A DNA stretch of 64,000 nt from a virus (taxonomy: Duplodnaviria > Caudoviricetes), in the IMG/VR virus record IMGVR_UViG_3300033066_001054; one strand, 5' to 3'. The translations under genes and the position numbers were made by a program. The notes below the pieces were generated by a model. It ran no database searches and was not told the origin of the DNA. It worked only from the letters and a program-made list of their open reading frames with translations. Of the stretch, positions 348 through 19,864 are shown piece by piece (the stretch's first letter is position 1; each line of letters begins with the position of its first letter).

Positions 348-405
348 GGTGCGACGCTTCCGGGGTTCCGGCCCCGGAAGCAACAATCGAAGGAATCAAA
401 CAATC

Positions 406-939
406 ATGGGATGGATGTCAGGCTGGAATAGCCGCCAAGAACTCGTAGACCACCTTACAACGCCACATCAGTGGAACAATGAAGGCAAGCAACACACGTT
501 GCGAGTTATCAAGAAGTGCTTCAGGGGCAACAATCTCTGGACCATTATGGAACTGGTGGTCGATGGACAACAGACCGACAAGTTTATCGTACTGTTCATG
601 CTCAAGCCGTTTGGACACGAGGGCTGGGGCTACAAGGACGTTGAAGAGACTTGCGGCCCGACTTACTACAACTGCCCAGTGAGCTGGCTGGACGAAGTGC
701 CGGACCCTGGCTCGTTTGCTACGGCCTGGCGCGAAAACGTGCGCCAAGCAGCCACAAAGCTGAAGGCGTTCAAAGACGGCCAACGCATCGTGTTCCCTTG
801 GGAAGTTCGATTCGGAGACGGTGTAACTGCCAAAGAGTTTACCGTAGAGAAGTTTCGCCGGCGCACATTGTTCCGCCGACCCGATGGCGTGCTATGCAGG
901 CTGACTAAGCGGATTCAAGAGGCCGCTCAACTCGCCTAA
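406..939 (+). CDS. conserved mobile-element protein (DUF6927-like)
   Basis: GWGYKDVEETCGPTYYNCP...WRENVR motif; start reassigned to ATG 406 (motif +38). Confidence 0.7.
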   Translation: MGWMSGWNSRQELVDHLTTPHQWNNEGKQHTLRVIKKCFRGNNLWTIMELVVDGQQTDKFIVLFMLKPFGHEGWGYKDVEETCGPTYYNCPVSWLDEVPDPGSFATAWRENVRQAATKLKAFKDGQRIVFPWEVRFGDGVTAKEFTVEKFRRRTLFRRPDGVLCRLTKRIQEAAQLA

Positions 940-946
940 CGACCCG

Positions 947-977
947 GCCCCGGAGCTACGGCTCCGGGGCTTTCTTT
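947..977 (+). terminator. intrinsic terminator overlapping promoter motif
   Basis: GCCCCGGAGC-TACG-GCTCCGGGGC followed by TTTCTTT. Confidence 0.7.
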
Positions 978-981
978 GCTT

Positions 982-1206
982 ATGCCCGAAATCAAAAACA
1001 TTCGAGTCGTAAACGTGTCGTCTTTGTTCGATAAGGACGACCTTGAACTGTTCCAAGACGAGGTGACAAACCGGTGGACCTGGGGCGATACCAAAATGTC
1101 GCTGGTGCCCATCACCGAAGTACGAGATGTGGCTTTCGAACTTTCGATTCTGAAAGTCGAGGACGGAGAACTGGACGAAGACATCTTTGTGGACCTGAAC
1201 AACTGA
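982..1206 (+). CDS. hypothetical acidic protein
   Basis: ATG at motif 944 +38. Confidence 0.7.
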   Translation: MPEIKNIRVVNVSSLFDKDDLELFQDEVTNRWTWGDTKMSLVPITEVRDVAFELSILKVEDGELDEDIFVDLNN

Positions 1207-1207
1207 T

Positions 1208-1366
1208 ATGCCAAAAGTCGAGCTAAAAGCACCATACGATGCCATTCTGCGCATCGTTCTGAACTATGCACGTTCCAATGCGGACGACATTGCCGAGACC
1301 ATCGAAGGCCCGTTCGCAGAGTCTGATGTTGAGGAACTTGCCGAAATCACGGGAGTCGAACTGTGA
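1208..1366 (+). CDS. small hypothetical protein (52 aa, MPKVELKAPY...)
   Basis: Hand-translated; fills the gap between neighbours with coupled stop/start. Confidence 0.6.
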   Translation: MPKVELKAPYDAILRIVLNYARSNADDIAETIEGPFAESDVEELAEITGVEL

Positions 1367-1758
1367 AGAAGTACAACTTCGATGTGTCATACACGTCCAT
1401 CACCACGATGTCCGTGATTGCCGAGTCTGAGGAAGCGGCGCAAGAGGAAGTCCAACAGCGATTCCGAAATCAACCAAACTTGACTTTCGGACTATCTGGC
1501 ACCAAGGAACTCGAGTGGTTCGCATCACGTTGTGACACAGAACTCGGAGCGTGGTACAACGACGAGTACGAGCGAATCGAGAGCAATCACGAAAAACTCG
1601 GCCCGTTCGTCTCTGCTGAAGAAGCACTAAACGCCACACGTACACAATGGGGGTACTGCGGTACATTCCACAAGTCGTTCAATGAGTCGTATACATCATC
1701 CGACCAGCAACGCGACGGCATGAAAGACTACACAGTCTACGCCAAAGAGGTCGTTTGA
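1363..1758 (+). CDS. hypothetical protein
   Basis: GTGA overlap with upstream ORF; stops just before the next motif. Confidence 0.65.
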   Translation: MKKYNFDVSYTSITTMSVIAESEEAAQEEVQQRFRNQPNLTFGLSGTKELEWFASRCDTELGAWYNDEYERIESNHEKLGPFVSAEEALNATRTQWGYCGTFHKSFNESYTSSDQQRDGMKDYTVYAKEVV

Positions 1759-1764
1759 CCACCG

Positions 1765-1794
1765 GCCCCGGAGCTTCGGCTCCGGGGCTTTTTT
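1765..1794 (+). terminator. intrinsic terminator overlapping promoter motif
   Basis: GCCCCGGAGC-TTCG-GCTCCGGGGC-TTTTTT. Confidence 0.75.
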
Positions 1795-1799
1795 CATTT

Positions 1800-2048
1800 A
1801 TGCCCAATCACGATTTTTCAGTCGAAGACCACGGTTCAATCTTCCTTGTGACTCCACACACCGACGCCGCAAAGGAGTGGTGGGAGACAAGAGTAGACGG
1901 TGGTCAGTCGTTCGGTCTCGGATACGCGGTCGAACACCGATTCATTCAGAACATCAGTCACGCTATCTTGGATGCTGGTATGAGCATCACCAAGGACGGC
2001 AAGACTATGGCAGTGTCCGAAAACACAGGAGACCTAGTACTGGTATGA
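1800..2048 (+). CDS. hypothetical protein (MPNHDFSVEDHGSIFL...)
   Basis: ATG at motif 1762 +38. Confidence 0.75.
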   Translation: MPNHDFSVEDHGSIFLVTPHTDAAKEWWETRVDGGQSFGLGYAVEHRFIQNISHAILDAGMSITKDGKTMAVSENTGDLVLV

Positions 2049-2173
2049 GAATCCCCTATTGGCACGGTACGAGACCCGATGGCTCATGGAAGCCTGGTCT
2101 TAAGTTCAAACTTGAGCGATTGTGCAACCGCATTCGCTCGCGATTCGGCTGGGACCCATTCGACTCGGAATAA
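2045..2173 (+). CDS. small hypothetical protein
   Basis: ATGA overlap; 42 aa. Confidence 0.45.
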   Translation: MRIPYWHGTRPDGSWKPGLKFKLERLCNRIRSRFGWDPFDSE

Positions 2174-2182
2174 TCTTGTATA

Positions 2183-2656
2183 ATGATGACTGTGCAGTAC
2201 GAAAAAGCCTTGAATAAGTACGGTCGTCATCATGAGTTCCGAGACGAATATGGATATATTTGGGTGACTGCGCCTATCGGTCACCCACGTGCAACCAAGT
2301 CGGTTCAAGGTAAATATACTGGATATGTAAAGCGGTGTGTCTTGGTGATAGAACTCAGTTTAGGCCGTCTATTATTAGCTGGTGAAGCGGTGCATCATAT
2401 CAACGGGTGCAAAGATGATGACCGAATAGAAAACCTTAAGGTTATGTCATTTACTGAACACTCAAGATTGCACCAAGCACAAAACAATCCAAGGAAAAGG
2501 ACTGGTAGTCCTGGTATTGGCGAACCATGCACTAGATGCTCAAAGGCATTAGATACACCAAAGCGAGGATTGTGCAACGCGTGTTATATGAAAGCCAAGA
2601 AACACAAAAAGAAACATGGTTGTTGGCCAGTTTTCGCTCTTCAGTTTGGTGAGTAA
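2183..2656 (+). CDS. HNH homing endonuclease
   Basis: VHHINGCKDDDRIENL...EHSRLH; C-terminal CxxC/CxxC; more AT-rich than neighbours. Confidence 0.85.
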   Translation: MMTVQYEKALNKYGRHHEFRDEYGYIWVTAPIGHPRATKSVQGKYTGYVKRCVLVIELSLGRLLLAGEAVHHINGCKDDDRIENLKVMSFTEHSRLHQAQNNPRKRTGSPGIGEPCTRCSKALDTPKRGLCNACYMKAKKHKKKHGCWPVFALQFGE

Positions 2657-2697
2657 CCACCGGCCCCGGAGTTTAACTCCGGGGCAAACCCTACATC

Positions 2698-3381
2698 ATG
2701 CACAAACCGGCAACCGCAGTCGAACTGAGTCGAAACTCCAAGATTGGCGACGCAAGCGCAACCTATGTTTCACAAGCGTCATGCCCCACAACTTGCCCTT
2801 TCAAGAACTCCGGCTGCTACGCCGAGACTGGAATGACGGGTATTCACACCCACCGGCTGAATAAATCGGTCATGAGCGACCCCGAGGCTATCGCAGAATG
2901 CGAGGCTGAGGCGATTCGCAAGCTGACCGGTCGATTCCCGTTGCGCTTGCACGTTGTCGGAGACTGCACCACCGACGTTGCTGCTGACATCGTTTCAGCC
3001 GCGGCCTCGGAACATCAGTCGAAGCACGGGCAACCAGCGTGGACATACACTCATGCCCACAACGTCCGACGCGAGTCGTGGCGGGACATCAGTGTTCTAC
3101 GGTCGTGCGAGAACATCGAGCAGGTTAAAAAAGCCCACGATGATGGCTTCGCCACCGCGATGGTCGTACCTGAGTTTGAGCGCGAAACCGCATATCCAAT
3201 TGCCGAGGATATCGTGGGCATCCCGTGCCCACAGCAAACCGGTAAGGTTGCGAACTGTATGCAGTGTCGCCTGTGTATGCAGGATGGCAAGCTACACCGC
3301 AGTCGGCGCACAATTCTCTTCGAGGCACACGGCACCAGCCGGAACCGCCTCGTGAACGTCCTCACCGGCCCCGGAGTTTAA
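2698..3381 (+). CDS. Cys-rich phage protein (gp88-like)
   Basis: NSKIG, CPTTCP...GCYA, LRLHVVGD, WTYTH, CMQCRLC; ATG at motif +38. Confidence 0.6.
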   Translation: MHKPATAVELSRNSKIGDASATYVSQASCPTTCPFKNSGCYAETGMTGIHTHRLNKSVMSDPEAIAECEAEAIRKLTGRFPLRLHVVGDCTTDVAADIVSAAASEHQSKHGQPAWTYTHAHNVRRESWRDISVLRSCENIEQVKKAHDDGFATAMVVPEFERETAYPIAEDIVGIPCPQQTGKVANCMQCRLCMQDGKLHRSRRTILFEAHGTSRNRLVNVLTGPGV

Positions 3382-3402
3382 CTCCGGGGCACAATAATCA
3401 TC

Positions 3403-3657
3403 ATGGCAATGTTCATCAAACTCGCACGTGGCACGGATGTTGCAGTACATCTCGGAAACTCACTACCTGCCAGCGTAGTCAATGACCTACAAAACGTCAC
3501 AGCGGTTCAAGCTAGTGACAAAGAACTCGAGCGGCTGCAGAAAATCTTCTACAACTGCTTGCCAACCGCACACGGCCGCAAAACGGTAACGTATGTGGGC
3601 GACACAGCAAGGTTCATTGTGGCCAACTGGATGACCGGCAAGCACACAGAAGATTGA
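3403..3657 (+). CDS. hypothetical protein
   Basis: ATG at motif 3365 +38. Confidence 0.7.
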   Translation: MAMFIKLARGTDVAVHLGNSLPASVVNDLQNVTAVQASDKELERLQKIFYNCLPTAHGRKTVTYVGDTARFIVANWMTGKHTED

Positions 3658-3695
3658 CCGGCCCCGGAGTTACGTTTCGAGACAAACCAATCATC

Positions 3696-3896
3696 ATGGC
3701 AAATCCAACGGTTTTCCAATGCCTGACTTTGGCGGCGGCTATCGACCTGTATGCTAAGACTGGAATCAAGGCAAACAGGTCGTACACTCCGACCAATATG
3801 CTCAGAACCGCCAGCAAGCTGACTGGCAAGACATTCAAGCGGGGTCAATACCAAGCGGCCTCGGAAGCACTTAGGGAGCACGCAAAGACAATATGA
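3696..3896 (+). CDS. hypothetical protein
   Basis: ATG at motif 3658 +38. Confidence 0.7.
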   Translation: MANPTVFQCLTLAAAIDLYAKTGIKANRSYTPTNMLRTASKLTGKTFKRGQYQAASEALREHAKTI

Positions 3897-4294
3897 AACT
3901 CACTTTCGACGCAAAACTCGTCCAGCAACTGCTGGATGACTCAAAGAACGCCAAGGAATGGCGACTGGCATACGGTGAAGAGTTCAGCGACAAGTCTGAA
4001 GCCCGACCAGGACTTTGGATTGTCGGAGACCAGGGCGTGTACCTGATGTCCAACTCCAAGACCGGAATCTTCAAGCCGAGCAAGGCTGGAGAGGAGCCGA
4101 GTCACCTTGTGGCGTATGCGCACCAGTGCGACCCTACGGGTGATTTCGACACCTGGTGGGAGAACAAACGCGCTGCTTTCGGTGGCGATGATGGCGTCGA
4201 GTTCCTCAGTGCCGAGTTCATTGAGGCTGCGCTGGCGAAGGCAAAGAACGGTAAGATGGCGATGTACGTCACGCCGACGAAAATCAAAATCTAA
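3893..4294 (+). CDS. DUF3085 family protein
   Basis: GLWIVGDQGVYLMSN, VAYAHQCDP, FGGDDGVEF. Confidence 0.8.
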   Translation: MKLTFDAKLVQQLLDDSKNAKEWRLAYGEEFSDKSEARPGLWIVGDQGVYLMSNSKTGIFKPSKAGEEPSHLVAYAHQCDPTGDFDTWWENKRAAFGGDDGVEFLSAEFIEAALAKAKNGKMAMYVTPTKIKI

Positions 4295-4382
4295 CCACCG
4301 GCCCCGGAGCTTCGGCTCCGGGGTATACTTTCAATGTCGCCGCCCATTTTTGGCGGCAAATGGCTAACAGGAAAAACCTACT

Positions 4383-5447
4383 ATGTCAAACCCATACACT
4401 CAACTCGCAGTTGCTAAAATCCTTGGCAACGGTTCTCCAATCCCTCTACTGCCTTCTGGTAACAAGCCGGTCGCCGTAGGGTTCGCCCATATCTCGCCAG
4501 AGCAAGCCGCCAAACTTGTCGAGTGCAAAACGCTCTACGCTGTCCGTCGCCGGTACGATACCAAGGTTAAGGAATATCGTTCCACTATGGACGCTGGCAA
4601 TTGGTCTGATGACTGCAGCATCTCATTTGTGGTGTTGCGAGGTCACGAGGACCAGTGGTGCATCGCCAACGGCAATCACCGCCTCGAAAGCCTGTCCGGC
4701 GCGAAAATCCCCGGTCTGGATGTGCAGGTAACGATTCACCTGGTGGAAACCAAGACCGACCTTCAACGGCTAGTCAATGGCATGGACAGCGGCAAAAGTC
4801 GAAGCAATGCTGACAAGCTCATGATTGGCGGCTTCGGACACCTGCCCGACTTGAAACTGCTCGGCGGCTGCCTTGGTGCGCTGCGGTATGGTTTCACGTT
4901 CTCGCAGTCAAGCATGGAACACAATGACATTGTGGCTTCTGCTAAGGCATGGGAACCCTACTACACCGCCTATATGGAAGTGATTACTGGCGACATTCCA
5001 GAACTTCCGACCATTCCGACTTACCAGCAGGATGCAATGGCTGCTAAGTTGCGGACTAACGTGGTGGCTTCGGTTGGCATGGTGACCTTCAGCAACAGCG
5101 ACCCAGATATGGTTGCGATGGCAAAGGTGTTCTGGCGCGGCTTGCGAACTCTTGACGCCCAAGGTGATGACCGCTTACAGGTTTACATCAAGGAAACCCA
5201 AGAACTGTTCCACCAGCTTTCAGAGTCCGCTCTGAAAGGCAAGAACCCGCTTCGCTCCGAAGGTGGTCGGCGCAGACTGTTCCGACAGATGTGCGTTCTG
5301 TGGAATGATTGGGTGGATGGTGCTGAAAAGCCTCGAAGCCTGACTTCAGTCACCGAAGAGATGTTCCCCGCAATCAAGGCAACCAACCTTGACGGTACGG
5401 CGAACAAGGCATGGTCTTCAATCAAGCGCGATTGGACCATCGTCTAA
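4383..5447 (+). CDS. ParB/Srx-like N-terminal domain protein
   Basis: IANGNHRL motif followed by MDSGKSRS; AGGA SD upstream. Confidence 0.55.
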   Translation: MSNPYTQLAVAKILGNGSPIPLLPSGNKPVAVGFAHISPEQAAKLVECKTLYAVRRRYDTKVKEYRSTMDAGNWSDDCSISFVVLRGHEDQWCIANGNHRLESLSGAKIPGLDVQVTIHLVETKTDLQRLVNGMDSGKSRSNADKLMIGGFGHLPDLKLLGGCLGALRYGFTFSQSSMEHNDIVASAKAWEPYYTAYMEVITGDIPELPTIPTYQQDAMAAKLRTNVVASVGMVTFSNSDPDMVAMAKVFWRGLRTLDAQGDDRLQVYIKETQELFHQLSESALKGKNPLRSEGGRRRLFRQMCVLWNDWVDGAEKPRSLTSVTEEMFPAIKATNLDGTANKAWSSIKRDWTIV

Positions 5448-5492
5448 TGCAACCTCGGCCCCGGAGCTTCGGCTCCGGGGCTTTTTTGCTTT

Positions 5493-5807
5493 ATGGCATT
5501 CACATTCATGGAATCCGGACCAGGTACAATCCGAGGTGATAAAATCACCCTGACGCGCTTTTGCGGGCCAGCTTCGGACAAGTTCCTGCAACGCCTGAAG
5601 GGCAATCGACACTGTTTGCAAATCAGTTTTGACCCTGCTGGGGCACCGTTCGATGTACGGTTCAAATACTGTGACGTGCAACTGACAAGAGACGAGGCAA
5701 TCGTGCTTCGAGACAACCTGACGCGCTTTATCGACGGCGTTCAGGATGGAGAACACGTCAGTCGATTCGACACCGCAAGAGAGCGCAAAAACAAACTCAT
5801 CCTATGA
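5493..5807 (+). CDS. hypothetical protein
   Basis: ATG at motif 5455 +38, after hairpin and T-tract. Confidence 0.7.
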   Translation: MAFTFMESGPGTIRGDKITLTRFCGPASDKFLQRLKGNRHCLQISFDPAGAPFDVRFKYCDVQLTRDEAIVLRDNLTRFIDGVQDGEHVSRFDTARERKNKLIL

Positions 5808-6412
5808 AACGAACACCACTAGACGAAGCAATCGGAGTACCCGCCGGCGCAGCCCAGGTATTCCTCGACGTTGTTGGCGGCGCAAGCCTAGACAAAGCCA
5901 TCAAGAACCAAGAGAAGCAAGGCCAAGCAGACTCGTGCAGGGCACAAGCATTGCCAATCAATGGTACGACGAACAACCGAGAGGTCTGGGAGAAGCTGGG
6001 CTTTGTCTTTGGTGACAATGCCGATGACCTGTTCGTAAACGTTACCATGCCACCGGGCTGGGAACTGCGGCCTACCGAACACTCGATGTGGTCCGACCTA
6101 CGCGATGAGCAAGGCCGCATTCGAGCCAAAATGTTCTACAAGGCCGCGTTCTACGACCGAGATGCGAGTATCTCACTGTGTCGAAGGTTCAATATTGACC
6201 AGTATGACAACAAGGAAGGCGAACCTGACAGTCTGATTCGCGTGTCGGTGTATGATAGCAGTGCGATGCGCAAAGAGCCAGTCCACGTCATCGAGACAGA
6301 ATGCGACGAACCCAAAGAACGCTATGACGCTCGCGCAGAACTCGCCAAAGAAGCCAAGGAATGGCTGAACGAGACCTATCCAGACTGGCAAGACCCGCTT
6401 GCCTACTGGTAA
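5804..6412 (+). CDS. conserved phage hypothetical protein
   Basis: ATGA overlap; FYKAAFYDRDA and YPDWQDPLAYW. Confidence 0.75.
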   Translation: MKRTPLDEAIGVPAGAAQVFLDVVGGASLDKAIKNQEKQGQADSCRAQALPINGTTNNREVWEKLGFVFGDNADDLFVNVTMPPGWELRPTEHSMWSDLRDEQGRIRAKMFYKAAFYDRDASISLCRRFNIDQYDNKEGEPDSLIRVSVYDSSAMRKEPVHVIETECDEPKERYDARAELAKEAKEWLNETYPDWQDPLAYW

Positions 6413-6455
6413 GCCACCGGCCCCGGAACCGAAGTTCCGGGGCTCAACTATCATC

Positions 6456-6743
6456 ATGAGCAATCAAGGCACACTTATCAAATCAGGCAGCGGAGTTCCT
6501 TTCATCTTCATTGATGACAAATCACCCGAATGGGAGAAGGCATGGAGCAATCTCTACAAGCAGTACGAGAATCATGTCTCTGGGTACGAAGTCTGGCAGT
6601 ACATGGGGACGTGGCTGACTGAAGGCACGACCTGGGTTCACCAGTTCCGGCACAGGGACTATCATGGCAAGCGGACGTATGTCGATATCACTCCGACAGA
6701 CGAGTTCCTGGTCAGCATCCCTGAGATTCTCGCCGCAAGCTGA
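6456..6743 (+). CDS. hypothetical protein
   Basis: ATG at motif +39; WQYMGT...HQFRHR. Confidence 0.7.
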   Translation: MSNQGTLIKSGSGVPFIFIDDKSPEWEKAWSNLYKQYENHVSGYEVWQYMGTWLTEGTTWVHQFRHRDYHGKRTYVDITPTDEFLVSIPEILAAS

Positions 6744-6786
6744 ATCACCGGCCCCGGAGTCGAACTCCGGGGCGCAACTTCAAACC

Positions 6787-7044
6787 ATGAGAAAACGCGA
6801 CCTTCTTAAAATCCTACTCCAAGGTGTCGTAATCGAGTTCTGTAACACTGGATTCGAGCGGAGAGGCAACAAGGCCTGGGACCTTGGGTACTACCAGCTA
6901 CGCTACCCAAGCGGCGCCACCGCCTCACTTGGTATGACACAAGGCCACAACATCACAAGCCAGTGGTGTTACTATGATGCACAAAACAAGTGCTATCGAC
7001 TCAACCAGCCAGCAAGATTGCTACTAACAGGAAGGAAATCATGA
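6787..7044 (+). CDS. hypothetical protein
   Basis: ATG at motif +39. Confidence 0.6.
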   Translation: MRKRDLLKILLQGVVIEFCNTGFERRGNKAWDLGYYQLRYPSGATASLGMTQGHNITSQWCYYDAQNKCYRLNQPARLLLTGRKS

Positions 7045-7379: not shown

Positions 7380-7386
7380 AATGAGC

Positions 7387-7731: not shown

Positions 7732-7775
7732 GCCGACCCGGCCCCAGATTCCTCCCTGGGGCCTACATTTTCATC

Positions 7776-8102: not shown

Positions 8103-8111
8103 ACAAACATC

Positions 8112-12083: not shown

Positions 12084-12124
12084 CCACCGGCCCCGGAGCT
12101 ACGGCTCCGGGGCTTTTTTGCTTC

Positions 12125-12415: not shown

Positions 12416-12421
12416 AACATC

Positions 12422-12838: not shown

Positions 12839-12843
12839 TCAAC

Positions 12844-13032: not shown

Positions 13033-13033
13033 T

Positions 13034-13324
13034 ATGGCAAAAGCGAAACCTCAGTTCCACGCCGGTCCTGACTGGCAAACTGGTCAAAAGTACTTCAGCA
13101 TCGAAGATGCAATGAAGGGCGCAGAGACCAACGTACAATGGACTGTATGGCGCAACACGCCAGGAACCTGGGCAATCGTCTACAGTCAAGGCGACAAGCT
13201 CGAACTCACTGGTGGCGGATACGGTCGGGGTAAGCCACGAGGCACCCGCAACGAGTGGGATACAGCCTATGTGTACGAAGACCTTCGATGGGCTTCGGTT
13301 TCTGAACTCTGCAAAATGGTGTAA
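13034..13324 (+). CDS. hypothetical protein
   Basis: GAGG SD; follows the stop of the upstream ORF. Confidence 0.6.
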   Translation: MAKAKPQFHAGPDWQTGQKYFSIEDAMKGAETNVQWTVWRNTPGTWAIVYSQGDKLELTGGGYGRGKPRGTRNEWDTAYVYEDLRWASVSELCKMV

Positions 13325-13364
13325 GGCGGCCCCGGAGCCGCCTTCGCCAACAAATCAAAACATC

Positions 13365-13688
13365 ATGGACAAGGCACTTTACACTTTGCACAAAGCTCGC
13401 CCCGGCGTTGGTGGCTTCCACTGCTCCTGCTGCAATCCTGCATTCGGTAACTTCAAGGGGCCGGATTCTCGCCGTCATCGCCAAGCAGCCAAGCGTGCCC
13501 TGCGACGCGTCGAGCGCCAACGCGCACGCAATGCTGGTGCAGAAGAGTTGCATCAGCAGTTCATCGAAGCCATCCATGAACACAACTATTGGATGATTGA
13601 TTTTGGTATGGAAGACCAGTGCATCGAGTACAATCGGCTTCAAGGTGTGATTCGCAAGCCGGCCCCGGAACTAAGCATGGCGTGGTGA
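13365..13688 (+). CDS. basic hypothetical protein
   Basis: ATG at motif +39; CSCC. Confidence 0.6.
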   Translation: MDKALYTLHKARPGVGGFHCSCCNPAFGNFKGPDSRRHRQAAKRALRRVERQRARNAGAEELHQQFIEAIHEHNYWMIDFGMEDQCIEYNRLQGVIRKPAPELSMAW

Positions 13689-13696
13689 AATGAATC

Positions 13697-14005
13697 ATGC
13701 GAAGCGATTACATCGAATTCGACACTACTCCGGTTGATGAGCCTTGTGTGGGTATCAATGGCGATATGACCGAGGCAAAAGCCGAAGCCTATCGCATGAA
13801 GGAACTGCTGGAGAAGCGGTTTCCCGATGTTAATGGCTACTTCACAATCAAGAGCATGCCACACGACTTTGGTTCGTACTTGGAGATGCGGTTCTACTAC
13901 TACGACGACGAAGATGGCATCAAGGAGATGCAACACGTCGAAGCCAACTACCCTCAAACTTGGCAGGACACCGAACCCGTGTTGCTGTATCCTAAGAAGG
14001 ACTGA
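13697..14005 (+). CDS. conserved phage hypothetical protein
   Basis: TPVDEPC...PHDFGSYLE; motif +38. Confidence 0.75.
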   Translation: MRSDYIEFDTTPVDEPCVGINGDMTEAKAEAYRMKELLEKRFPDVNGYFTIKSMPHDFGSYLEMRFYYYDDEDGIKEMQHVEANYPQTWQDTEPVLLYPKKD

Positions 14006-14047
14006 CCCACCGGCCCCGGAGCTACGGCTCCGGGGCTTTTTTACTTC

Positions 14048-14287
14048 ATGGCTATCATCCCTGAATCACTCAAGTTCACCCAAGAAGAACAAGCCAAACT
14101 CGAGGCCATCCGCGTGAAGGCCAGGGCACGACATGAGCGCGAACGCAAGGCTGCCCTGAAGCGCGGCTGCAAGGACTATCCACTGTTGCCATATGAATGC
14201 TCATGGGCATATGAAGAGCAGTTCAGGCGAGCCGTCAGGAATCCGGCCCCGGAACCAAGACGACGATTTGGTTTTCTATCATGCTGA
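14048..14287 (+). CDS. hypothetical protein
   Basis: ATG at motif +38. Confidence 0.65.
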   Translation: MAIIPESLKFTQEEQAKLEAIRVKARARHERERKAALKRGCKDYPLLPYECSWAYEEQFRRAVRNPAPEPRRRFGFLSC

Positions 14288-14601
14288 AACTTCCAAGCAA
14301 CATCCCGCCACTCTATGCCACCGAAAAGGTGGATACTGACGACAAAGTGATGCACGCTCGTTTGTTTGCATTAAATAGCGCAGCAACCTGGCTTGTTGCT
14401 GAGTATGACCCCGAAGACAGGGTCATCTATGGCTATTGTGACCTATACGGTCAAGGTCGAGAAGGTGGTGCCGAATGGGGATGTGTCTCCATCGCAGAGC
14501 TGGAGTCGCTCAAGTTCATGGGCATTCCCCGTGTCGAGGTTGACGCGCACTTCACGCCGAAGCCGTTTAAGGAGTGCATCTCGCCTGACGGTCGCATCTA
14601 A
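14281..14601 (+). CDS. DUF2958 family protein
   Basis: ATWLVAEYDP...GYCDL...EWGCVSIAELE...VEVDAHF. Confidence 0.8.
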   Translation: MLKLPSNIPPLYATEKVDTDDKVMHARLFALNSAATWLVAEYDPEDRVIYGYCDLYGQGREGGAEWGCVSIAELESLKFMGIPRVEVDAHFTPKPFKECISPDGRI

Positions 14602-14646
14602 ACCGACCCGGTCCCGGAACCCCGGAAACGGGGTTCCCACCCATCA

Positions 14647-14706
14647 ATGGCGAACCACAAACGAAAGAAATGCAAGCGGTCGACACATGCCATTACGGGC
14701 AACTAA
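14647..14706 (+). CDS. 19-aa basic micropeptide MANHKRKKCKRSTHAITGN
   Basis: ATG at motif 14608 +39; stop 2 nt before the next motif. Confidence 0.45.
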   Translation: MANHKRKKCKRSTHAITGN

Positions 14707-14747
14707 GCCCGGCCCCAGAACCTCAATTCAGGTATAACCACAACATC

Positions 14748-14906
14748 ATGAGCAAGAAGCGAAAACAAGCATCGCCCAAGCCATCGTACACTCCGGTGCC
14801 GTTCACACGGGCTCACTCAAAGCCACATAGGCTGGAGGAGAACTCCCGTGCCAGACGCAAGCGCGAAGAGCGCGATGCCAAGAACGGCAAGTGGGGGCAA
14901 GATTGA
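14748..14906 (+). CDS. small basic protein
   Basis: ATG at variant motif 14709 +39. Confidence 0.6.
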   Translation: MSKKRKQASPKPSYTPVPFTRAHSKPHRLEENSRARRKREERDAKNGKWGQD

Positions 14907-15274
14907 TAACTGAGTTCAAGGGCGAACGCGGTAGCTTCTCAGTGTGTCACAAGGGAGAGGTCTGGACAGTCCAGGCTATGGTGTTTGGTGTTGAGCCGCC
15001 GGATGAATTCAACATCAAACACAAGGAACCAATTGACTGGCGATTGGATGAGAAAAATCACTCACCTACCGGTCTCGAATGGGGATATGGTGGTTCCGGA
15101 CCAAGTCAATTGGCGTGGTGTATCCTACGAGAATGTGGACTGACTCAACCACAAGCCGCTAAGCTGTATATGCAGTTCAAGGCAGATGTGATTGCTAACC
15201 TGCCACGTGATGGATTCACCTTAACTGTCCAACAGGTCATGGATTGGGTCAAGAAGAACGGCCCCGGAACCTAA
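14891..15274 (+). CDS. DUF6166-like protein
   Basis: NHSPTGLEWGYGGSGPSQLA. Confidence 0.7.
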   Translation: MGARLITEFKGERGSFSVCHKGEVWTVQAMVFGVEPPDEFNIKHKEPIDWRLDEKNHSPTGLEWGYGGSGPSQLAWCILRECGLTQPQAAKLYMQFKADVIANLPRDGFTLTVQQVMDWVKKNGPGT

Positions 15275-15295
15275 TCCGGGTAAGGACTTATCAAC

Positions 15296-15685
15296 ATGTG
15301 GAAAGCAAATCAAGAGCGACCTGGAAGCTGGTACATCACGCACAACGACCGAGTTCAACCCTTCGGCGCAATCTTTTTCAATGAGCGCGGCGACATCGGT
15401 GAACTGGTCAAGCGTGCTGTTACACAACTCAACGCCGGCAAGCGCGTCATCCAGGGTGTCCGCGACCTGTACGAAGTCGTCATGACACCTTCTGGTGTGG
15501 CTGATATCAACTTGGTGCGCACTCCACTTTGCAAGAAGTGTAATGTGCCCATGAAAGAGGGTGAAGCACTCCAGAACCAACTCGTTGGTGGTGACTTTCG
15601 CGGTGCCACACTTAGCCACACCGGACCGGCGCAAATGGTCAAGGTATGGAAGTGCCCTGACTGTGGGCACTCGTTCACAAAGTAG
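15296..15685 (+). CDS. zinc-ribbon protein
   Basis: CKKC...CPDCG; motif +38. Confidence 0.7.
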   Translation: MWKANQERPGSWYITHNDRVQPFGAIFFNERGDIGELVKRAVTQLNAGKRVIQGVRDLYEVVMTPSGVADINLVRTPLCKKCNVPMKEGEALQNQLVGGDFRGATLSHTGPAQMVKVWKCPDCGHSFTK

Positions 15686-15723
15686 CGGTCCCGGAACCGC
15701 GCAAACCACAAAAGGAGTAAGAC

Positions 15724-16014
15724 ATGAGCAGACACACTACTCAAGCAGGCAACCTCGAAGTCGTTCTCGGTGTCGACCGACCACTGAACCATGTGTTCGC
15801 GTCCATCTTCGAAGATGGCGAAGAGGTCGAAGGGTTCGACCCGTTCTCGTGGTTCCAACCGACACCAGCAGGTGTTGATGAGGCGATTTCCGCCGTGGAA
15901 ACCTTCGTTGGCAACAACTGGAAGGTTCCTGGCGAGCTGCGCCAAGCCTTGCTTGATGACCTGACAGCGATGTTATTCGGTGCGTCCATCAACCACGCTA
16001 AGGTACACAGGTAA
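15724..16014 (+). CDS. hypothetical protein
   Basis: motif +39; VVLGVDRPL. Confidence 0.7.
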   Translation: MSRHTTQAGNLEVVLGVDRPLNHVFASIFEDGEEVEGFDPFSWFQPTPAGVDEAISAVETFVGNNWKVPGELRQALLDDLTAMLFGASINHAKVHR

Positions 16015-16059
16015 CCCTGAACCGGCCCCGGAGCTTCGGCTCCGGGGCTTTTTTGCTTC

Positions 16060-16269
16060 ATGAACAAGATTCAACGCATCGCAGCAACACTCGGCATTCC
16101 TGCGAACGAAATCACAAAAGCCGAGCGAAAAGCCATCAGCAAGACCAAATCAGCCGCAGAAGTGTGCCGAATACTTGCAATTGAAGTCGACGGTAATGTA
16201 CAATATGTGCAGGCCGCCATGAAGCGACACAAGAAGTCGAAAGCGCAGGTGTATGCGTATGCGGCGTAA
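16060..16269 (+). CDS. small basic protein
   Basis: ATG at motif +38. Confidence 0.65.
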   Translation: MNKIQRIAATLGIPANEITKAERKAISKTKSAAEVCRILAIEVDGNVQYVQAAMKRHKKSKAQVYAYAA

Positions 16270-16281
16270 TGGAGTAAAACT

Positions 16282-16413
16282 ATGAGTCTACAAGGTTCAG
16301 GATGCATGTTCATCATCGGGATGCTGTTCTGTGCGATGTTCTGGGGATTCTATGGTGCTTTTTGGTGGACGGTTGCAAGCGTCATCGTCACCATATTGAG
16401 CAACGACGACTAA
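16282..16413 (+). CDS. small membrane protein (43 aa)
   Basis: Hand-translated hydrophobic ORF with GGAG SD. Confidence 0.5.
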   Translation: MSLQGSGCMFIIGMLFCAMFWGFYGAFWWTVASVIVTILSNDD

Positions 16414-16453
16414 GCCGGTCCCGGAACTCAAACAACCAACAAATCACAAAAGC

Positions 16454-16828
16454 ATGTGGAAAACATCAAAGATGGAATCCACCTTCGAGCATAGCCTTGA
16501 AGGTGCAAAGCAGGCTGGGTTCAACGGTTGCATCAAGTATGCCGACCAAGACACCGCAGTCGAAGCCAAAAAGGTACTTCGACCGCACTTGGATGAAGCA
16601 TACGACCTTGTCGCTTACCAGGGTGATGTCACAGCCGAGGTTGACATGGAGTACATGAGCGAACCAAGACTTCGGGTTTCTGAGTTCCTCAAGGCGATTG
16701 TTGCCACTAACCCAGTATCAGCCGAGTTTGAAGCTGAGGATGAGGACGGTGAACAGTACCAGATGAACCTGGTGGATGGTCAATGGGTGCTCATGCAACG
16801 CTCTGACAACTTCCAAGAGGTAGCGTAA
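16454..16828 (+). CDS. acidic hypothetical protein
   Basis: motif +39. Confidence 0.7.
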   Translation: MWKTSKMESTFEHSLEGAKQAGFNGCIKYADQDTAVEAKKVLRPHLDEAYDLVAYQGDVTAEVDMEYMSEPRLRVSEFLKAIVATNPVSAEFEAEDEDGEQYQMNLVDGQWVLMQRSDNFQEVA

Positions 16829-16836
16829 AACTCGCG

Positions 16837-16866
16837 GTCCCGGAACTTCGGTTCCGGGACTTTTTT
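16837..16866 (+). terminator. intrinsic terminator with compensatory changes
   Basis: GTCCCGGAAC-TTCG-GTTCCGGGAC-TTTTTT. Confidence 0.8.
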
Positions 16867-16871
16867 CATTT

Positions 16872-17045
16872 ATGCCGAAAGCAAAGCCGGTCAAGACGCT
16901 CAAAGAGCTGGGCGAAATCATCACTAAGAACTTCTCGCAGAAAATGATTCGCGAGGGGTACAATATCGACCCGTCTGACTTGGAAGAGGTCGGCCGCCAA
17001 GCATTGGCATGGGGCGATATTCGACGCGACGGTACACTCAACTAG
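16872..17045 (+). CDS. small hypothetical protein (57 aa, MPKAKPVKTL...)
   Basis: ATG at motif 16834 +38. Confidence 0.65.
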   Translation: MPKAKPVKTLKELGEIITKNFSQKMIREGYNIDPSDLEEVGRQALAWGDIRRDGTLN

Positions 17046-17054
17046 GAGGTTGAT

Positions 17055-17267
17055 ATGCAAACCACAGTAAGGCACTTGCTACCGGGCGATGTCCTGGTAG
17101 GTTCGGGGTTCACGGTGACCCGTGCGCCATATGTTGCGGTCAATACACCGCGTGGCAAGATGTGCGTTGAAGGGCACTACAAGAACAAACCGGTAGGCAC
17201 TCGCATTTGGGGAGCATCAACCACCGTCACAATCAAGCGCGAAGGCGCGGTCCCGGAACCCGGATAG
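17055..17267 (+). CDS. hypothetical protein
   Basis: AGGAGG SD. Confidence 0.7.
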   Translation: MQTTVRHLLPGDVLVGSGFTVTRAPYVAVNTPRGKMCVEGHYKNKPVGTRIWGASTTVTIKREGAVPEPG

Positions 17268-17285
17268 TCCGGGTTCCATACAATC

Positions 17286-17654
17286 ATGGAAACATGGCTG
17301 AAGGACGACGATGCCAAGGCAATCTGCCGGCATCGAGCGAAGTCAAACGAGTACATTCGACGCCGGTTGTCCTCCGGCGCGAAAGTACCGCGAGCGGAAT
17401 GGATGCAATGGGCGCACGAGTACGATGCAGTCCATACAATCCTGAAGGTACTCGCTGGTATCTGCGACGGCGCAAAGTCGCATGATGGATGCGGATTCAA
17501 CAAACTGGACTCAGGCAGGGGCAAGCGACTGGCTTATCAGTCAGAACTTACCAACGATGAGTTCTGGACTGGAGTCCGAATAGTCCGCAAGTACCACAAG
17601 CAAATCGACCCCGCACTCATGGCGTGGGTTCCCCGGTCCCGGAACCCGCAATAG
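17286..17654 (+). CDS. hypothetical protein with CDGA...DGxGFNKxD motif
   Basis: motif +39. Confidence 0.7.
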   Translation: METWLKDDDAKAICRHRAKSNEYIRRRLSSGAKVPRAEWMQWAHEYDAVHTILKVLAGICDGAKSHDGCGFNKLDSGRGKRLAYQSELTNDEFWTGVRIVRKYHKQIDPALMAWVPRSRNPQ

Positions 17655-17670
17655 CGGGTTCCCACCTAAC

Positions 17671-17991
17671 ATGAGCGAAACACTCGAAAACTCCGCCGAC
17701 CGCTTCTTCAAGTGGTTGGATTCAATCGCTGAATCGACGCTCGGGAAAATCGGTAAGTCGAAAGGATTCCATATCTGGCACTCAGGTGGTGGTTGCCATC
17801 ATTTCCGAAAGGACAATCCGAACGGATGCTATGTCCTGGTGTGCCACGAATCCGAGATTCCCGAAAACGACCTTGGAACCTGGATGGTCGGCACCTACGA
17901 TGCCGAAGGTATGGAAATCGGAGTCGAGGACTTCGAGGGAAAACTCGAAGATGCGCTGGATATGGCGGACAAACTTCTAGCCGAAGTCTAG
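17671..17991 (+). CDS. hypothetical protein
   Basis: motif +38; HSGGGC. Confidence 0.7.
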   Translation: MSETLENSADRFFKWLDSIAESTLGKIGKSKGFHIWHSGGGCHHFRKDNPNGCYVLVCHESEIPENDLGTWMVGTYDAEGMEIGVEDFEGKLEDALDMADKLLAEV

Positions 17992-18029
17992 CCGGTCCCG
18001 GAACCCCGGAAACGGGGTTCCCACCTATC

Positions 18030-18233
18030 ATGGACATCAAGAAGATTAAACAGTCCATCGGAGAACAGTACGCTTATGTACTGCGCTCCGATATCTACAC
18101 CGATGAGGTGCGCAAGCAAATCATCGCTGCAATGGATGACATGGTGGAACTCACTTCCAAAATCACAGGGTACACCGTGACCGAACTCAAGGAACTCGTA
18201 CCCGATGGACGCCCGGTCCCGGAACCCGCCTAG
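18030..18233 (+). CDS. hypothetical protein
   Basis: ATG at motif +38. Confidence 0.65.
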   Translation: MDIKKIKQSIGEQYAYVLRSDIYTDEVRKQIIAAMDDMVELTSKITGYTVTELKELVPDGRPVPEPA

Positions 18234-18274
18234 TGCGGGTTCCATAAAGCATCACCACGGAGGGTGACAGCATC

Positions 18275-18565
18275 ATGGAAGATAACAAGACAGGTTTACA
18301 ACGTGCCCTAGAGAACGCTGCTATCAAGGCAGGCTGGGGCATTCTCGTCACCGCGATGGCACTGCCTACTGCATGGCAATGGGCAACCACACTTGACCCT
18401 GATGGCATCTTAGGTGTCACGATTGCACTTTGCATCCTCGGATGCGCTGCGCTATCGCCCCTAGTGCTAGGATGCGGGTTTGCATCCGATGACCTGCGAA
18501 AAGCGCGTCGTATATGGCGTGCTTCACGACCACAACTGCGGTCCCGGAATCAGCGGAACGCCTAG
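18275..18565 (+). CDS. membrane protein
   Basis: Two hydrophobic segments; GGAGGG SD in a short leader. Confidence 0.65.
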   Translation: MEDNKTGLQRALENAAIKAGWGILVTAMALPTAWQWATTLDPDGILGVTIALCILGCAALSPLVLGCGFASDDLRKARRIWRASRPQLRSRNQRNA

Positions 18566-18610
18566 ACCATATCAATGTCCCAAGCAATGGGACGGAGGAA
18601 AATCACACTC

Positions 18611-18805
18611 ATGTTCACCGTAGACAAGTTCGACCCCAAGACCAACAAGCTCACCGTCACGTTCGACCTCAGCGCACCCCGCAAGCCGGAACCCGGCAAG
18701 GTCATGTGGATGATGGGTACGACCGGCGGATTCAAGGAAGTTCCCGGCGTCAACATCGACGGGCACGCTCTCAAGTTGTCCGCCAATATCGGCTTCAAGA
18801 AGTAG
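18611..18805 (+). CDS. hypothetical protein
   Basis: GGAGGA SD after a leader hairpin; alternative ATG at 18575. Confidence 0.6.
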   Translation: MFTVDKFDPKTNKLTVTFDLSAPRKPEPGKVMWMMGTTGGFKEVPGVNIDGHALKLSANIGFKK

Positions 18806-18877
18806 CCACAATCGCCGGTCCCGGAACCCCGCCTAGCGGGGTTCCTCTACATTGTCCCAAGGGACAAAGGAGATACG

Positions 18878-19105
18878 ATGCCTAAGACAAGCACAGTCAT
18901 CGACAACGCCGTTGCGGAATACACGCAACGCCAGACTCGCCAAGCCGTCAAGCGACTGACGGCGCAAGCCGAACGCCTCAATGGTGACCGGCTTTGCCGA
19001 CTTCCCAAAGCCGATGAACGGCTTGTCAAGACCTTGCGCGACCTTAGCGCAATCGACCGCGAAGGTGCCAAGCATCTCGCCAAGTCTATGGGGATGACGT
19101 TCTAA
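18878..19105 (+). CDS. hypothetical protein
   Basis: AAGGAG SD. Confidence 0.7.
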   Translation: MPKTSTVIDNAVAEYTQRQTRQAVKRLTAQAERLNGDRLCRLPKADERLVKTLRDLSAIDREGAKHLAKSMGMTF

Positions 19106-19173
19106 ATCGCCGGTCCCGGAACCCCGCCTAGCGGGGTTCCATTGTAATGTCCCAAGGGACAACAGGAGGAACC

Positions 19174-19383
19174 ATGAAGGTTACTGATATCCGCCTCACC
19201 GCTTCGGCAGAGGGCACGCTCGTCACTCCGGTAAACGCGCTCGGTTCGCGGGTTGCCAAGACCCAACTGCCAGGTTGCGGTGACTTTACCGCCATTGGCG
19301 TGCCCGTGACCGTCAAGATGCCGGTCGATATTGTCAAGTCGATTCTGCGCGGTCGAGGTGCGCGATTCAGCGCGACCGCATAA
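19174..19383 (+). CDS. hypothetical protein
   Basis: AGGAGG SD; alternative ATG at 19147. Confidence 0.65.
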   Translation: MKVTDIRLTASAEGTLVTPVNALGSRVAKTQLPGCGDFTAIGVPVTVKMPVDIVKSILRGRGARFSATA

Positions 19384-19423
19384 CAGCGGTCCCGGAACCC
19401 CGGAAACGGGGTTCCCACCTATC

Positions 19424-19528
19424 ATGAAAGCAATCTTCGCGGTGGCACTGGTGTACGGACTGGTGTTCCACACCACACTGACCATCGTCGTCATCATCGC
19501 ACTTGCGGTGCTTAAGGTAGTTAAGTAA
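19424..19528 (+). CDS. 34-aa membrane peptide
   Basis: ATG at motif +38; entirely hydrophobic. Confidence 0.55.
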   Translation: MKAIFAVALVYGLVFHTTLTIVVIIALAVLKVVK

Positions 19529-19864
19529 CCGCCGGTCCCGGAACTCAACACACGACCAAACGCCTAAGCATGGCAAGAGAGGTAGTCACATGAAGCGCTG
19601 AGCATTCAAGCTAATCTGGAACCGACAAGCCGGGGTGGTGCCCCGGCTCCAAATCCAAGGCGGCCCCGGACGCCTGGCAAGCGCCCGGTGACTAGCTCCC
19701 GGCTCGCAAGCCGGACCGCCGAGGTCGACCTTGGTGCCAATCGCTGTTTCCCTAAGTGGAGGGGGTGGGGTCAAGATTTTAGGTACCATATTGGAAATAG
19801 TAACGTCCGTATACGGGATGTTATTTTTCTTCTGTGAGTCATATTAGTGAGCGCCATGGTGGGT

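Follow-up and report, generated by a model that had tools for sequence, protein, structure and literature searches.

A GC-rich box at a fixed distance before start codons as a candidate promoter cassette in the small-gene array of a huge phage

What reads a short GC-rich box that is repeated dozens of times on one strand, each time at nearly the same distance from the start codon of a small gene? This question is raised by a 64,000-nucleotide (nt) stretch of viral DNA (Duplodnaviria; Caudoviricetes; IMG/VR record IMGVR_UViG_3300033066_001054), the whole of which is called here the window. Its first 20 kb carry the box CGGYCCCGGAR in front of one gene after another, and the box, the spacer and the start codon are treated below as one module. 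On balance, the module is probably a composite promoter/terminator cassette, whose promoter would be read by the host RNA polymerase (RNAP) carrying a phage sigma factor and would yield leaderless messenger RNAs (mRNAs).

The box, its spacer and the start codon

Forty-one exact copies of the box lie on the + strand between 369 and 19543 (window pattern count; shuffles predict 0.07), and tolerance of one mismatch adds six more (at 3002, 3856, 7350, 11393, 14710 and 19661), giving a total of 47 on the + strand (369–19661). Counted from the first C of the box, an ATG stands at +37 in 26/47 copies and at +38 in 13/47. An ATG at either offset, as seen in 39/47, is far in excess of the background ATG frequency (P~3e-47), and no other offset from +28 to +49 holds more than two ATGs. 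Additional starts are an ATG at +36 in two copies and a GTG at +37 in two others, and an open reading frame (ORF) of at least 29 amino acids (aa) begins at the module start in 41/47. The initial annotation of this DNA had described 46 copies on the + strand with a start at a fixed distance, and its counts and coordinates were right; its offsets of +38 and +39 (27 and 13 copies) were counted from the N preceding the box and equal the +37 and +38 used here. Searches of the literature with the motif string returned unrelated primer matches alone.

An array protein led to a complete relative, IMGVR_UViG_3300044957_000763 (478,840 bp, with terminal repeats), in which the box occurs in 72 exact copies, in 87 with one mismatch, and with a start at +36 to +39 in 68. 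These copies lie on one strand and all within 320,264–369,245 (49 kb), in a block of ~51% GC between flanks of 44–45%; the sole other copy is on the reverse strand. Because the relative has this single 49-kb block, the window can be taken to hold the final 20 kb of an array of ~50 kb, a unidirectional series of small, mostly ORFan genes that occupies 1–19760 (+ strand) and has a GC content of ~53–54%, against ~45% in the rest of the window. The window is therefore part of a huge phage of ~480 kb, and what had been taken for a right arm is the remainder of this larger genome, not the second arm of a phage of ~64 kb. That remainder, in which no copy had been noted, does contain one exact box on the − strand (52560–52570), within a DprA-like gene; this copy lacks a start codon at +37/38 and is not conserved, and the single reverse copy of the relative lies likewise within a gene, that of a sigma factor, and is not kept by other relatives. 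Being without start codon and without conservation, these reverse-strand strays were rejected as functional copies. Orthologue substitutions between the array ORFs and the relative fall on codon positions 1, 2 and 3 in a ratio of 232:172:703, a bias indicating that the module ORFs are real genes in that frame.

Folded singly, the modules separate into three classes. In class A (14/47), the box forms the 5′ arm of a perfect 10–11 bp hairpin (GCCCCGGAGC-loop-GCTCCGGGGC), which buries it at −24 kcal/mol. A T-run follows this hairpin in 9/14 class A modules, and these nine are the nine top terminator-like sites across the whole array. The hallmark of an intrinsic terminator, a GC-rich hairpin followed directly by a T-run, is therefore present in nine modules (945, 1763, 5456, 8589, 9341, 12088, 14011, 16023 and 16835) and absent from the other 38. 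In class C (9/47), the terminal GGAA of the box opens a second hairpin (GGAACCCCG-gaaa-CGGGGTTCC), without T-run, and the box is half-buried. Class B, with 24/47 modules, is hairpin-free and leaves the box unstructured. The gap from box to start is 26–27 nt in classes A, B and C alike. The spacer, described at first as unconserved, is thus not featureless, since 14 class A and nine class C copies carry hairpins. A plain-terminator reading, suggested by the modules at 945 and 1763, was rejected, 24/47 copies being hairpin-free.

An ATG-anchored alignment of 118 modules from the window and the relative places the box at −37 to −27, with its centre 32 bp before the ATG, and reveals a second conserved element immediately before the ATG, (A/C)ATC. 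With A(−3) at 67%, T(−2) at 70% and C(−1) at 76%, this pre-start signal is fairly strong and not weak as initially described. C(−1)/A(+1) corresponds to the usual pyrimidine/purine start of transcription, and a Y(−1)R(+1) initiator is conserved. Positions −11 to −6 are G-depleted and A/T-rich, no conserved −10 hexamer is present in the module alignment, and positions −26 to −5 are not conserved.

At which level the box is recognized can be judged from 25 orthologous promoter pairs of window and relative, 17 of which have equal spacing and were scored per position. Identity is 88–100% in the box, 59–71% in the spacer and 30–50% upstream of −39. Orthologues exchange hairpin state with box and distance unchanged, the modules at 9878, 10966, 13327, 14244 and 16023 differing from their partners in having a hairpin or an unstructured spacer; where hairpins are kept, arm changes are compensated (CGGCCCCGGAG...CTCCGGGGC versus CGGTCCCGGAA...TTCCGGGAC). 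Since the box is equally conserved whether it would be paired, half paired or single-stranded in RNA, the simplest view is that its reader binds double-stranded DNA. Taken together, the data are best explained by recognition of the box in DNA, in one orientation, and by an mRNA whose 5′ end coincides with the start codon or adjoins it.

A fixed distance from promoter to ATG is expected only if the ATG is itself the 5′ end of the transcript, which argues for leaderless mRNAs. Consistent with this, a Shine–Dalgarno-like (SD-like) 4-mer is found at 13–15% of module starts, a frequency near the 10% of random positions, and ~85% of module starts have none; an SD is retained in the modules at 9544, 11603 and 15686. 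The rest of the phage is likewise SD-poor, and the idea that the array is special in lacking SDs was dropped, the contrast with the rest of the window being weak and pointing instead to a phage that is generally leaderless. Indeed, outside the array, gene starts in the window and in relatives recurrently have the form TGnTAnnnT-N6-ATG/GTG, as at 23040, 39288, 40557(−), 42915(−), 42953 and 48244, the sites at 42915(−) and 42953(+) forming a divergent back-to-back promoter pair. The extended −10 boxes at such starts (TGGTAGACT, TGTTATAAT, TGGTATACT and TGGTATCAT) end exactly 6 nt before the ATG, which implies leaderless mRNAs outside the array too. Leaderless transcription, proposed from the outset for the box genes, is made probable by the fixed spacing and the scarcity of SDs, but it is not particular to the box, since genes with host-type promoters outside the array would share it. 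On the coding strand of the array itself, no promoter of the TGnTAnnnT type was found, and sigma70-like promoters are not above chance (8 found versus 11.6 expected); in the absence of host-type promoters, the array genes need another promoter. The transcription start site would thus lie at or near the ATG. The further suggestion that these mRNAs are mostly monocistronic fares less well, a hairpin with T-run being present in 9/47 modules only and some modules having an SD, and read-through between array genes is likely.

The module is also a joint between gene cassettes. In a blastn comparison of the window with the array of the relative, 67% aligns, in 18 syntenic blocks of 69–87% identity, and 26/34 block ends fall within −8 to +50 of a box, against 14% expected (P~4e-16). 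Points at which strains diverge in other river and wastewater contigs (936, 977, 1752, 1801, 5451, 8105 and 16020) are module joints as well. Breakpoints at modules are thus observed directly, and they suggest that homologous recombination at the module swaps self-expressing gene cassettes between strains. For T4-type phages, composite early-promoter/stem-loop cassettes (PeSLs) have been shown experimentally to mediate modular shuffling (PMC2839356, PMC4122927).

Candidate reader and competing explanations

The initial annotation had placed the factor that reads the box outside the window, and the relative does carry a divergent sigma-70-family gene, 3 kb before its array begins, with counterparts in five more contigs. 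The relative encodes four sigma-70-family proteins. One of them, P0001, is a three-domain protein of 285 aa encoded at 316.2–317.1 kb, with 3 kb between its gene and the first box. Sequence models give it marginal scores (Sigma70_r2, 24.9 bits; the best NCBIfam model is SigI-like, far below cut-off), but a profile built from ten P0001 homologues and run against the PDB matches sigma-F and the sigma-4 domain of SigW, and an AlphaFold model (pLDDT, the predicted local distance difference test score, of 69) matches sigma factors only, over 250–300 columns. By Pfam and NCBIfam, by the PDB profile search and by fold, the array-adjacent P0001 is a genuine sigma factor. In its region 2.3, SSYMFGLVLRR replaces the STYATWWIRQ of sigma70 and thus lacks the Trp dyad; its region 4.2 is very basic (LPEVRKRIKRSQ).

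Nineteen homologues of this sigma factor were found. Five contigs, whose sigma factors are 46–79% identical, keep the same gene order: a radical-SAM NrdG activase, the sigma gene, small genes, a 154-aa gene, a gap and the array. The gap between the 154-aa gene and the array head measures 0.7–1.4 kb and is conserved in relatives. The arrays of sigma-carrying relatives have the box at −37/−38, with variants: CGGCCCCGGAA at 78–79% sigma identity, CGGCCTCGGAA or CGGCCTAGGAA in two contigs of 40–41% GC, where the box is still GC-rich, and CGGCCCCRGAC in a metagenome-assembled genome (MAG) of Armatimonadota. Conserved host-type extended −10 boxes precede the sigma gene, which suggests a regulatory cascade. 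Just 5′ of this host-type promoter, the motif ATCACATTCAATCACA is conserved in several relatives (L019 316–318 kb, L028–L032) and may be an operator.

The Armatimonadota MAG contains the most distant homologue, on a 1.36-Mb contig (JAFDWS010000002.1) with 14 same-strand boxes over 47 kb and an adjoining SNF2 helicase homologue; the syntenic region spans 227–305 kb. A scan of genome contigs with the sigma profile retrieved this one Armatimonadota MAG only. The region could be a huge prophage or the product of mis-joining or mis-binning, and to judge from sequence it hints at Armatimonadota as host phylum.

The favoured mechanism would run as follows. The box, at −37 to −27, would lie where sigma region 4 contacts the −35 element and would be recognized on double-stranded DNA. 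Transcription would begin with the A in (A/C)ATC|ATG or no more than a few bases from it, with no −10 element and only the G-poor, A/T-rich stretch from −11 to −1. The resulting mRNA would be leaderless and translated without SD, as from the host-type promoters used by this phage elsewhere. The reader would be the host core RNAP with a phage sigma-70-family factor, most likely of the P0001 type, and the order of events would be a cascade from host sigma to phage sigma to array. In class A modules, about a third of the total, the box doubles as the 5′ arm of a GC hairpin, and the nine hairpins with a T-run would end the upstream transcript before the next start. Finally, a module of ~38–50 bp present in ~75–90 copies per genome would supply the homology for cassette exchange between strains. 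The parts of this scheme do not deserve equal confidence: that the box is a promoter element acting at the DNA level, with a 5′ end at or near the ATG, is more probable than the scheme as a whole, and that this particular sigma factor is the reader is less so.

Several points weigh against the scheme. What ties the sigma factor to the box is adjacency and conserved synteny, which can no more than suggest the link; three further phage sigma factors are encoded, and uncharacterized small genes separate the sigma gene from the array. The lack of a recognizable −10 is unusual for promoters of the sigma-70 family. Co-variation of the box with region 4.2 seemed suggestive at first, the recognition helices reading EVRKRIKR, DVRKSIKR, KVRNCFKR or DARRRLRR by lineage, but the helix differs between the two lineages that have CGGCCT(A/C)GGA, and in the three contigs added to the comparison the sequence stopped short of the array. 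Pfam searches would miss divergent phage RNAPs (phiKZ-, crAss- or YonO-like). The genes at 9544, 11603 and 15686, which retain an SD, can also be translated from read-through transcripts. Three wastewater metatranscriptome runs cover 49–67% of the stretch as Logan assembled contigs; these contigs break at the module, as does the DNA control, and bridge several junctions, and, given possible DNA carry-over, they are uninformative on 5′ ends or expression.

A more far-reaching version is tentative and, taken as a whole, unlikely. It holds that a divergent sigma-70-family factor of the phage, without Trp dyad in region 2.3, dispenses with the −10 altogether, reading an extended 11-bp GC-rich −35 box and having its start set by distance on a Y|R initiator, for ~75–90 leaderless genes of one 50-kb array; the module would then be promoter, terminator and joint at once, in an integrase-free ‘phage integron' whose host may belong to Armatimonadota.

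Of the competing explanations, the one that survives best, improbable as it is, holds that the box is bound not directly by sigma region 4 but by a phage activator, which, like MotA or a class II activator, would redirect a polymerase whose sigma factor is the primary one of the host or a different one of the phage. A box at −37 to −27 and the absence of a specific −10 suit an activator-dependent promoter, 11 bp is long for a −35 element, and several conserved unannotated small genes are available between the sigma gene and the array. However, promoters of the MotA type retain a good sigma70 −10, which the array promoters lack. No known DNA-binding domain was found in the array head genes, and the sigma factor is the sole recognizable transcription factor conserved beside the array.

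It is quite unlikely that the box is read by an unrecognized phage RNAP, either a non-canonical multisubunit or a two-barrel enzyme. The relative gives no hit to beta or beta′ catalytic domains, even at E≤1, and four phage sigma factors would be useful only with a host core enzyme; the geometry of the box, moreover, is that of a −35 element. Against this stand the divergent polymerases that huge or jumbo phages often carry and that Pfam misses, and the greater ease with which a promoter without −10 fits a non-sigma enzyme. The relative has no PF00940 hit for a T7-type polymerase, in a search made without positive control. T7-type promoters as such (~23 bp conserved, −17 to +6) were rejected on the same search and because positions −26 to −5 are unconserved here.

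Slightly less probable still is the proposal that the box is an RNA signal from which a measuring endoribonuclease cuts a polycistronic transcript 26 nt downstream, producing leaderless 5′ ends. A ruler-type RNase would explain why the ATG comes at a set distance and why the boxes share one orientation, and long read-through RNAs are plausible with a full terminator in 9/47 modules only. Yet the box would occur in RNA in three incompatible pairing states, between which orthologues switch, no host-type promoters within the 50-kb array could yield the precursor, and the box lies at the canonical −35 distance. A measuring RNase of this kind is not known to act on phage mRNAs.

That the module is primarily a site-specific recombination site of the integron attC kind, or a repetitive extragenic palindromic (REP)-like element, with its position before the ATG secondary, is very improbable. 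The gene content of strains does change exactly at modules, and the cassettes are unidirectional as in an integron array. Half of the modules, however, have no inverted repeat, and there is no likeness to the R and L boxes of attC; the attC reading was rejected on the former ground, no integrase having been searched for. Conservation of the initiator and placement of the ATG to within 1 nt point to a role in expression, and a 38–50 bp repeat is enough for homologous exchange, as in PeSLs (PMC2839356). Least probable of all, for all the nine textbook terminators and the strong hairpin in 23/47 copies, is that modules are mere intrinsic terminators or 3′ stabilizing hairpins of upstream genes, or hairpin promoters of the N4 type, since box, spacing and initiator persist in the 24/47 hairpin-free copies, the module stands at a set distance from the ATG that follows it but at varying distances from the preceding stop codon, and the hairpin of N4 virion-RNAP promoters, which is obligatory there, has 5–7 bp centred at −11 (PMC4496689), against 10–11 bp centred near −23 here.

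Modules along the array and features beyond it

All modules described in this section lie on the + strand, and lengths in aa refer to the ORF opened by the start codon given. The first terminator-type class A module, at 945–984 (ATG 982, 74 aa), has an 11-bp stem followed by TTTCTTT. A T6 run follows the hairpin at 1763–1802 (ATG 1800, 82 aa), 5456–5495 (ATG 5493, 104 aa), 8589–8628 (ATG 8626, 54 aa), 9341–9380 (ATG 9378, 54 aa), whose orthologue in the relative has compensatory arm changes, 12088–12127 (ATG 12125, 96 aa), 14011–14050 (ATG 14048, 79 aa), 16023–16062 (ATG 16060, 69 aa) and 16835–16874 (ATG 16872, 57 aa), the last with a T-variant box (CGGTCCCGGAA...TTCCGGGAC). Class A hairpins without T-run are found at 2661–2700 (ATG 2698, 227 aa, DUF7227), at 3366–3405 (ATG 3403, 84 aa), where the module overlaps the stop of the upstream gene, at 6418–6458 (ATG 6456 at +38, 95 aa) and at 6749–6789 (ATG 6787 at +38, 85 aa). 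The remaining class A copy, 4299–4338, has its hairpin followed by GGTATACT, a host-type −10 that replaces the usual spacer; no ORF begins at +37/38, the next real gene starting at 4383, 84 nt from the box, and the copy may represent a former module that has turned into a host-type promoter.

Class B begins with the first module of the window, 369–408 (ATG 406, 177 aa, DUF6927), whose box CGGCCCCGGAA pairs with an upstream CTTCCGGGG. Class B modules with the start at +37 follow at 3659–3698 (ATG 3696, 66 aa), 8075–8114 (ATG 8112, 85 aa), 8954–8993 (ATG 8991, 114 aa), 12807–12846 (ATG 12844, 62 aa), 13660–13699 (ATG 13697, 102 aa), 14244–14283 (ATG 14281, 106 aa) and 15259–15298 (ATG 15296, 129 aa). 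The start is at +38 in those at 9878–9918 (ATG 9916, 137 aa), for which the orthologue in the relative has a hairpin spacer, 10332–10372 (ATG 10370, 197 aa), 12384–12424 (ATG 12422, 138 aa), 13327–13367 (ATG 13365, 107 aa) and 16416–16456 (ATG 16454, 124 aa). The three SD-bearing spacers belong to this class, with AGGAGG at 9544–9583 (ATG 9581, 98 aa) and AGGAG at 11603–11642 (GTG 11640, 147 aa) and 15686–15726 (ATG 15724 at +38, 96 aa). One-mismatch boxes of class B are CGGCCTCGGAA at 3856–3895 (ATG 3893, 133 aa), CGGCCCGGGAA at 7350–7389 (ATG 7387, 114 aa), CGGCCCAGGAA at 11393–11433 (ATG 11431 at +38, 70 aa) and CGGCCCCAGAA at 14710–14750 (ATG 14748 at +38, 52 aa). A further one-mismatch box CGGCCTCGGAA, at 3002–3041 within the gene 2698–3381, is followed at +37 by a GTG that opens 29 aa only and is probably not a working module.

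Regular class C modules stand at 10966–11006 (ATG 11004 at +38, 69 aa), 17248–17288 (ATG 17286 at +38, 122 aa), 17634–17673 (ATG 17671, 106 aa), 17993–18032 (ATG 18030, 67 aa) and 19387–19426 (ATG 19424, a hydrophobic peptide of 34 aa). The class C copy at 14609–14649 has an ATG at +38 that opens 19 aa only, the real gene running from 14670. Two class C copies are leadered exceptions, with a genuine SD downstream of the +36/37 position, and behave as leadered variants of the same promoter: at 18214–18253, ATC stands at +37 and is followed in frame by GGAGG and ATG 18275 (96 aa), and at 18816–18855, the palindrome TGTCCCAAGGGACA runs from +36, with AAGGAG and ATG 18878 out of frame with +36. 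In the class C copy at 19111–19149, an ATG at +36 begins the same palindrome, in frame with AGGAGG and ATG 19174, and in the class B copy at 18539–18577 an ATG at +36 is accompanied by the small hairpin GTCCCAAGCAATGGGAC, GGAGGA and more in-frame ATGs. In three successive modules (18575–19180), the predicted start thus coincides exactly with the palindrome TGTCCCAAGGGACA or its variant GTCCCAAGCAATGGGAC. The relative keeps this palindrome, which may act as an operator or form a 5′ RNA hairpin particular to those genes.

The final regular box, at 19533–19572, is followed at +37 by an ATG of seven codons only and may drive a non-coding RNA at the array end; the terminal one-mismatch box CGGCCCCGGAC (19661–19700) has no start codon at the usual distance. 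Beyond these last two boxes, within 19533–19760, comes a GC-rich non-coding stretch that terminates in GGAGGGGGTGGGGTC, and the relative has a similar ATGGCAAG after its last exact box (369,245). This stretch could be a small RNA or an end signal of the array.

Most array genes have no assigned family. Domains were recognized in an HNH endonuclease, in the DUF6927 and DUF7227 proteins, in a ligase with WGR, in a VWA protein and in a GHKL ATPase. The HNH endonuclease gene (HNH_3, 2183–2656) lies inside the array with no box of its own and is probably a homing-endonuclease insertion. Relatives retrieved through the DUF7227 protein (L002–L012) were considered as further sources of the box and rejected, being box-free and carrying unrelated iteron-like repeat arrays instead. 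A megablast of the array against 50,697 phage records gave no match, and a search of IMG/VR with exact long module patterns found just IMGVR_UViG_3300044957_000763. Seven studies of river, wastewater and activated-sludge metagenomes include runs that contain the stretch.

Immediately beyond the array, a pair of 41-nt direct repeats (19867–19907 and 20514–20554), 647 bp apart and sharing 76% identity, encloses a low-GC segment; a G-run (GGGGGTGGG) stands before each repeat. The segment carries, on the − strand, an ORF of 199 aa rich in Cys (19865–20464) that has no Pfam family, and it resembles the insertion of a mobile gene. Outside the array, the window further encodes an SNF2 helicase, a group II intron, NAD-salvage genes, the DprA-like gene and a C5 methylase. 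The group II intron (35702–37602), inserted in this non-array region, comprises an ORF with reverse transcriptase, maturase and HNH domains (35702–37573) and an Rfam Intron_gpII match to domains V–VI (37500–37602). A cluster at 40583–50037 holds genes for a phosphoribosyl pyrophosphate (PRPP) synthetase-like protein, a protein kinase-like protein and a glutamine-dependent NAD synthetase.

Relation to known promoters and gene cassettes

The initial annotation found no match between the module and sigma70, T7, T4-late or N4 promoters, and on the features of the module this mismatch holds. Its proposal of a new promoter class stands as regards sequence specificity, which is new, but not as regards strategy, since a phage sigma factor combined with composite cassettes is a known one and no new machinery is called for. 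More generally, its observation was confirmed and its interpretation in part, the dual hairpin/terminator character of the module and the shuffling of cassettes having been missed.

Locking of a promoter to the start codon is known from the leaderless genes of Actinobacteria and Deinococcus-Thermus, in which a −10 element (TANNNT) lies ~12 bp before the start codon (PMC3160421). This phage uses that design outside its array; within the array, in contrast, the −10 is replaced by a far-upstream GC-rich box, and 5′ ends at the start codon are predicted from spacing. A second likeness concerns sigma-I promoters, which read ACCCCC--AA-N15-CGAA in Bacillales and CCCYYAAA-N13-14-CGWA for C. thermocellum sigmaI3 (PMC4711584). 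The sigma factor adjacent to the array scores best, if weakly, against SigI models, and the YCCC-GG-AA of the box recalls the C-tract and AA of their ‘extended −35'. However, the scores of that sigma factor are far below the SigI cut-offs, and no CGWA or CGAA stands at a fixed position; a sigma-I −10 in the spacers was rejected, since the positions of CGAR vary among the 21/55 hairpin-free spacers that contain it. This likeness is no more than a lead.

Phage sigma factors that redirect the host core to a conserved phage motif are exemplified by SPO1 gp28 and gp33/34 (PMC13401047) and by phiEco32 gp36 and that of Salmonella phage 7-11 (PMC4331800), and in them, as proposed here, expression of the phage sigma gene depends on host-type promoters. 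Unlike the array promoters, those of the known systems are bipartite (−35 and −10) and of low copy number (PMC4331800); here, a box and an initiator recur in about ten times as many copies, and the role of the sigma factor would follow from gene order. In the middle promoters of T4, which work through sigma appropriation by AsiA/MotA (PMC2988021) and have a MotA box centred at −30, a phage box also replaces the −35 at a similar position, but these promoters keep a sigma70 −10 and produce leadered mRNAs, and no MotA or AsiA homologue was identified here. If the proposed mechanism is true, the array offers a large natural promoter set for one phage sigma factor, with ~47 members here, 72–87 in the relative and low-GC variants, and a system for studying both DNA opening by a sigma-70-family factor without −10 and wholesale leaderless initiation in a virus. 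In this phage group, the box can also guide the annotation of start codons as well as of transcription units, and it marks a fast-evolving pool of accessory genes.

The closest parallel overall is provided by PeSLs (PMC2839356, PMC4122927), in which short cassettes of promoter and stem-loop or terminator recur between ORFans throughout a hyperplastic region, with a stem-loop that may sit between promoter elements or overlap the −35, and recombination of cassettes inserts, deletes or replaces self-expressing genes among close relatives. The array described here shares with them ORFan-interspersed cassettes (47 in 19.7 kb), a stem-loop, with termination predicted, and cassette-bounded replacements. 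It differs in other respects. PeSLs are ~100 bp long and contain a strong sigma70-like promoter (−35, −10 and AT-rich upstream sequence) followed by an SD, all of which are missing from the array modules; the module here is ~38 bp long, with a GC-rich box, no −10, no SD and an ATG fixed at +37/38. It is present in ~75–90 copies in one contiguous 50-kb array, in a phage that is not known to be T4-type. The array thereby extends the PeSL principle past T4-type phages to huge phages of uncultured hosts, with another promoter chemistry, one short module serving to isolate, express and mobilize accessory genes.

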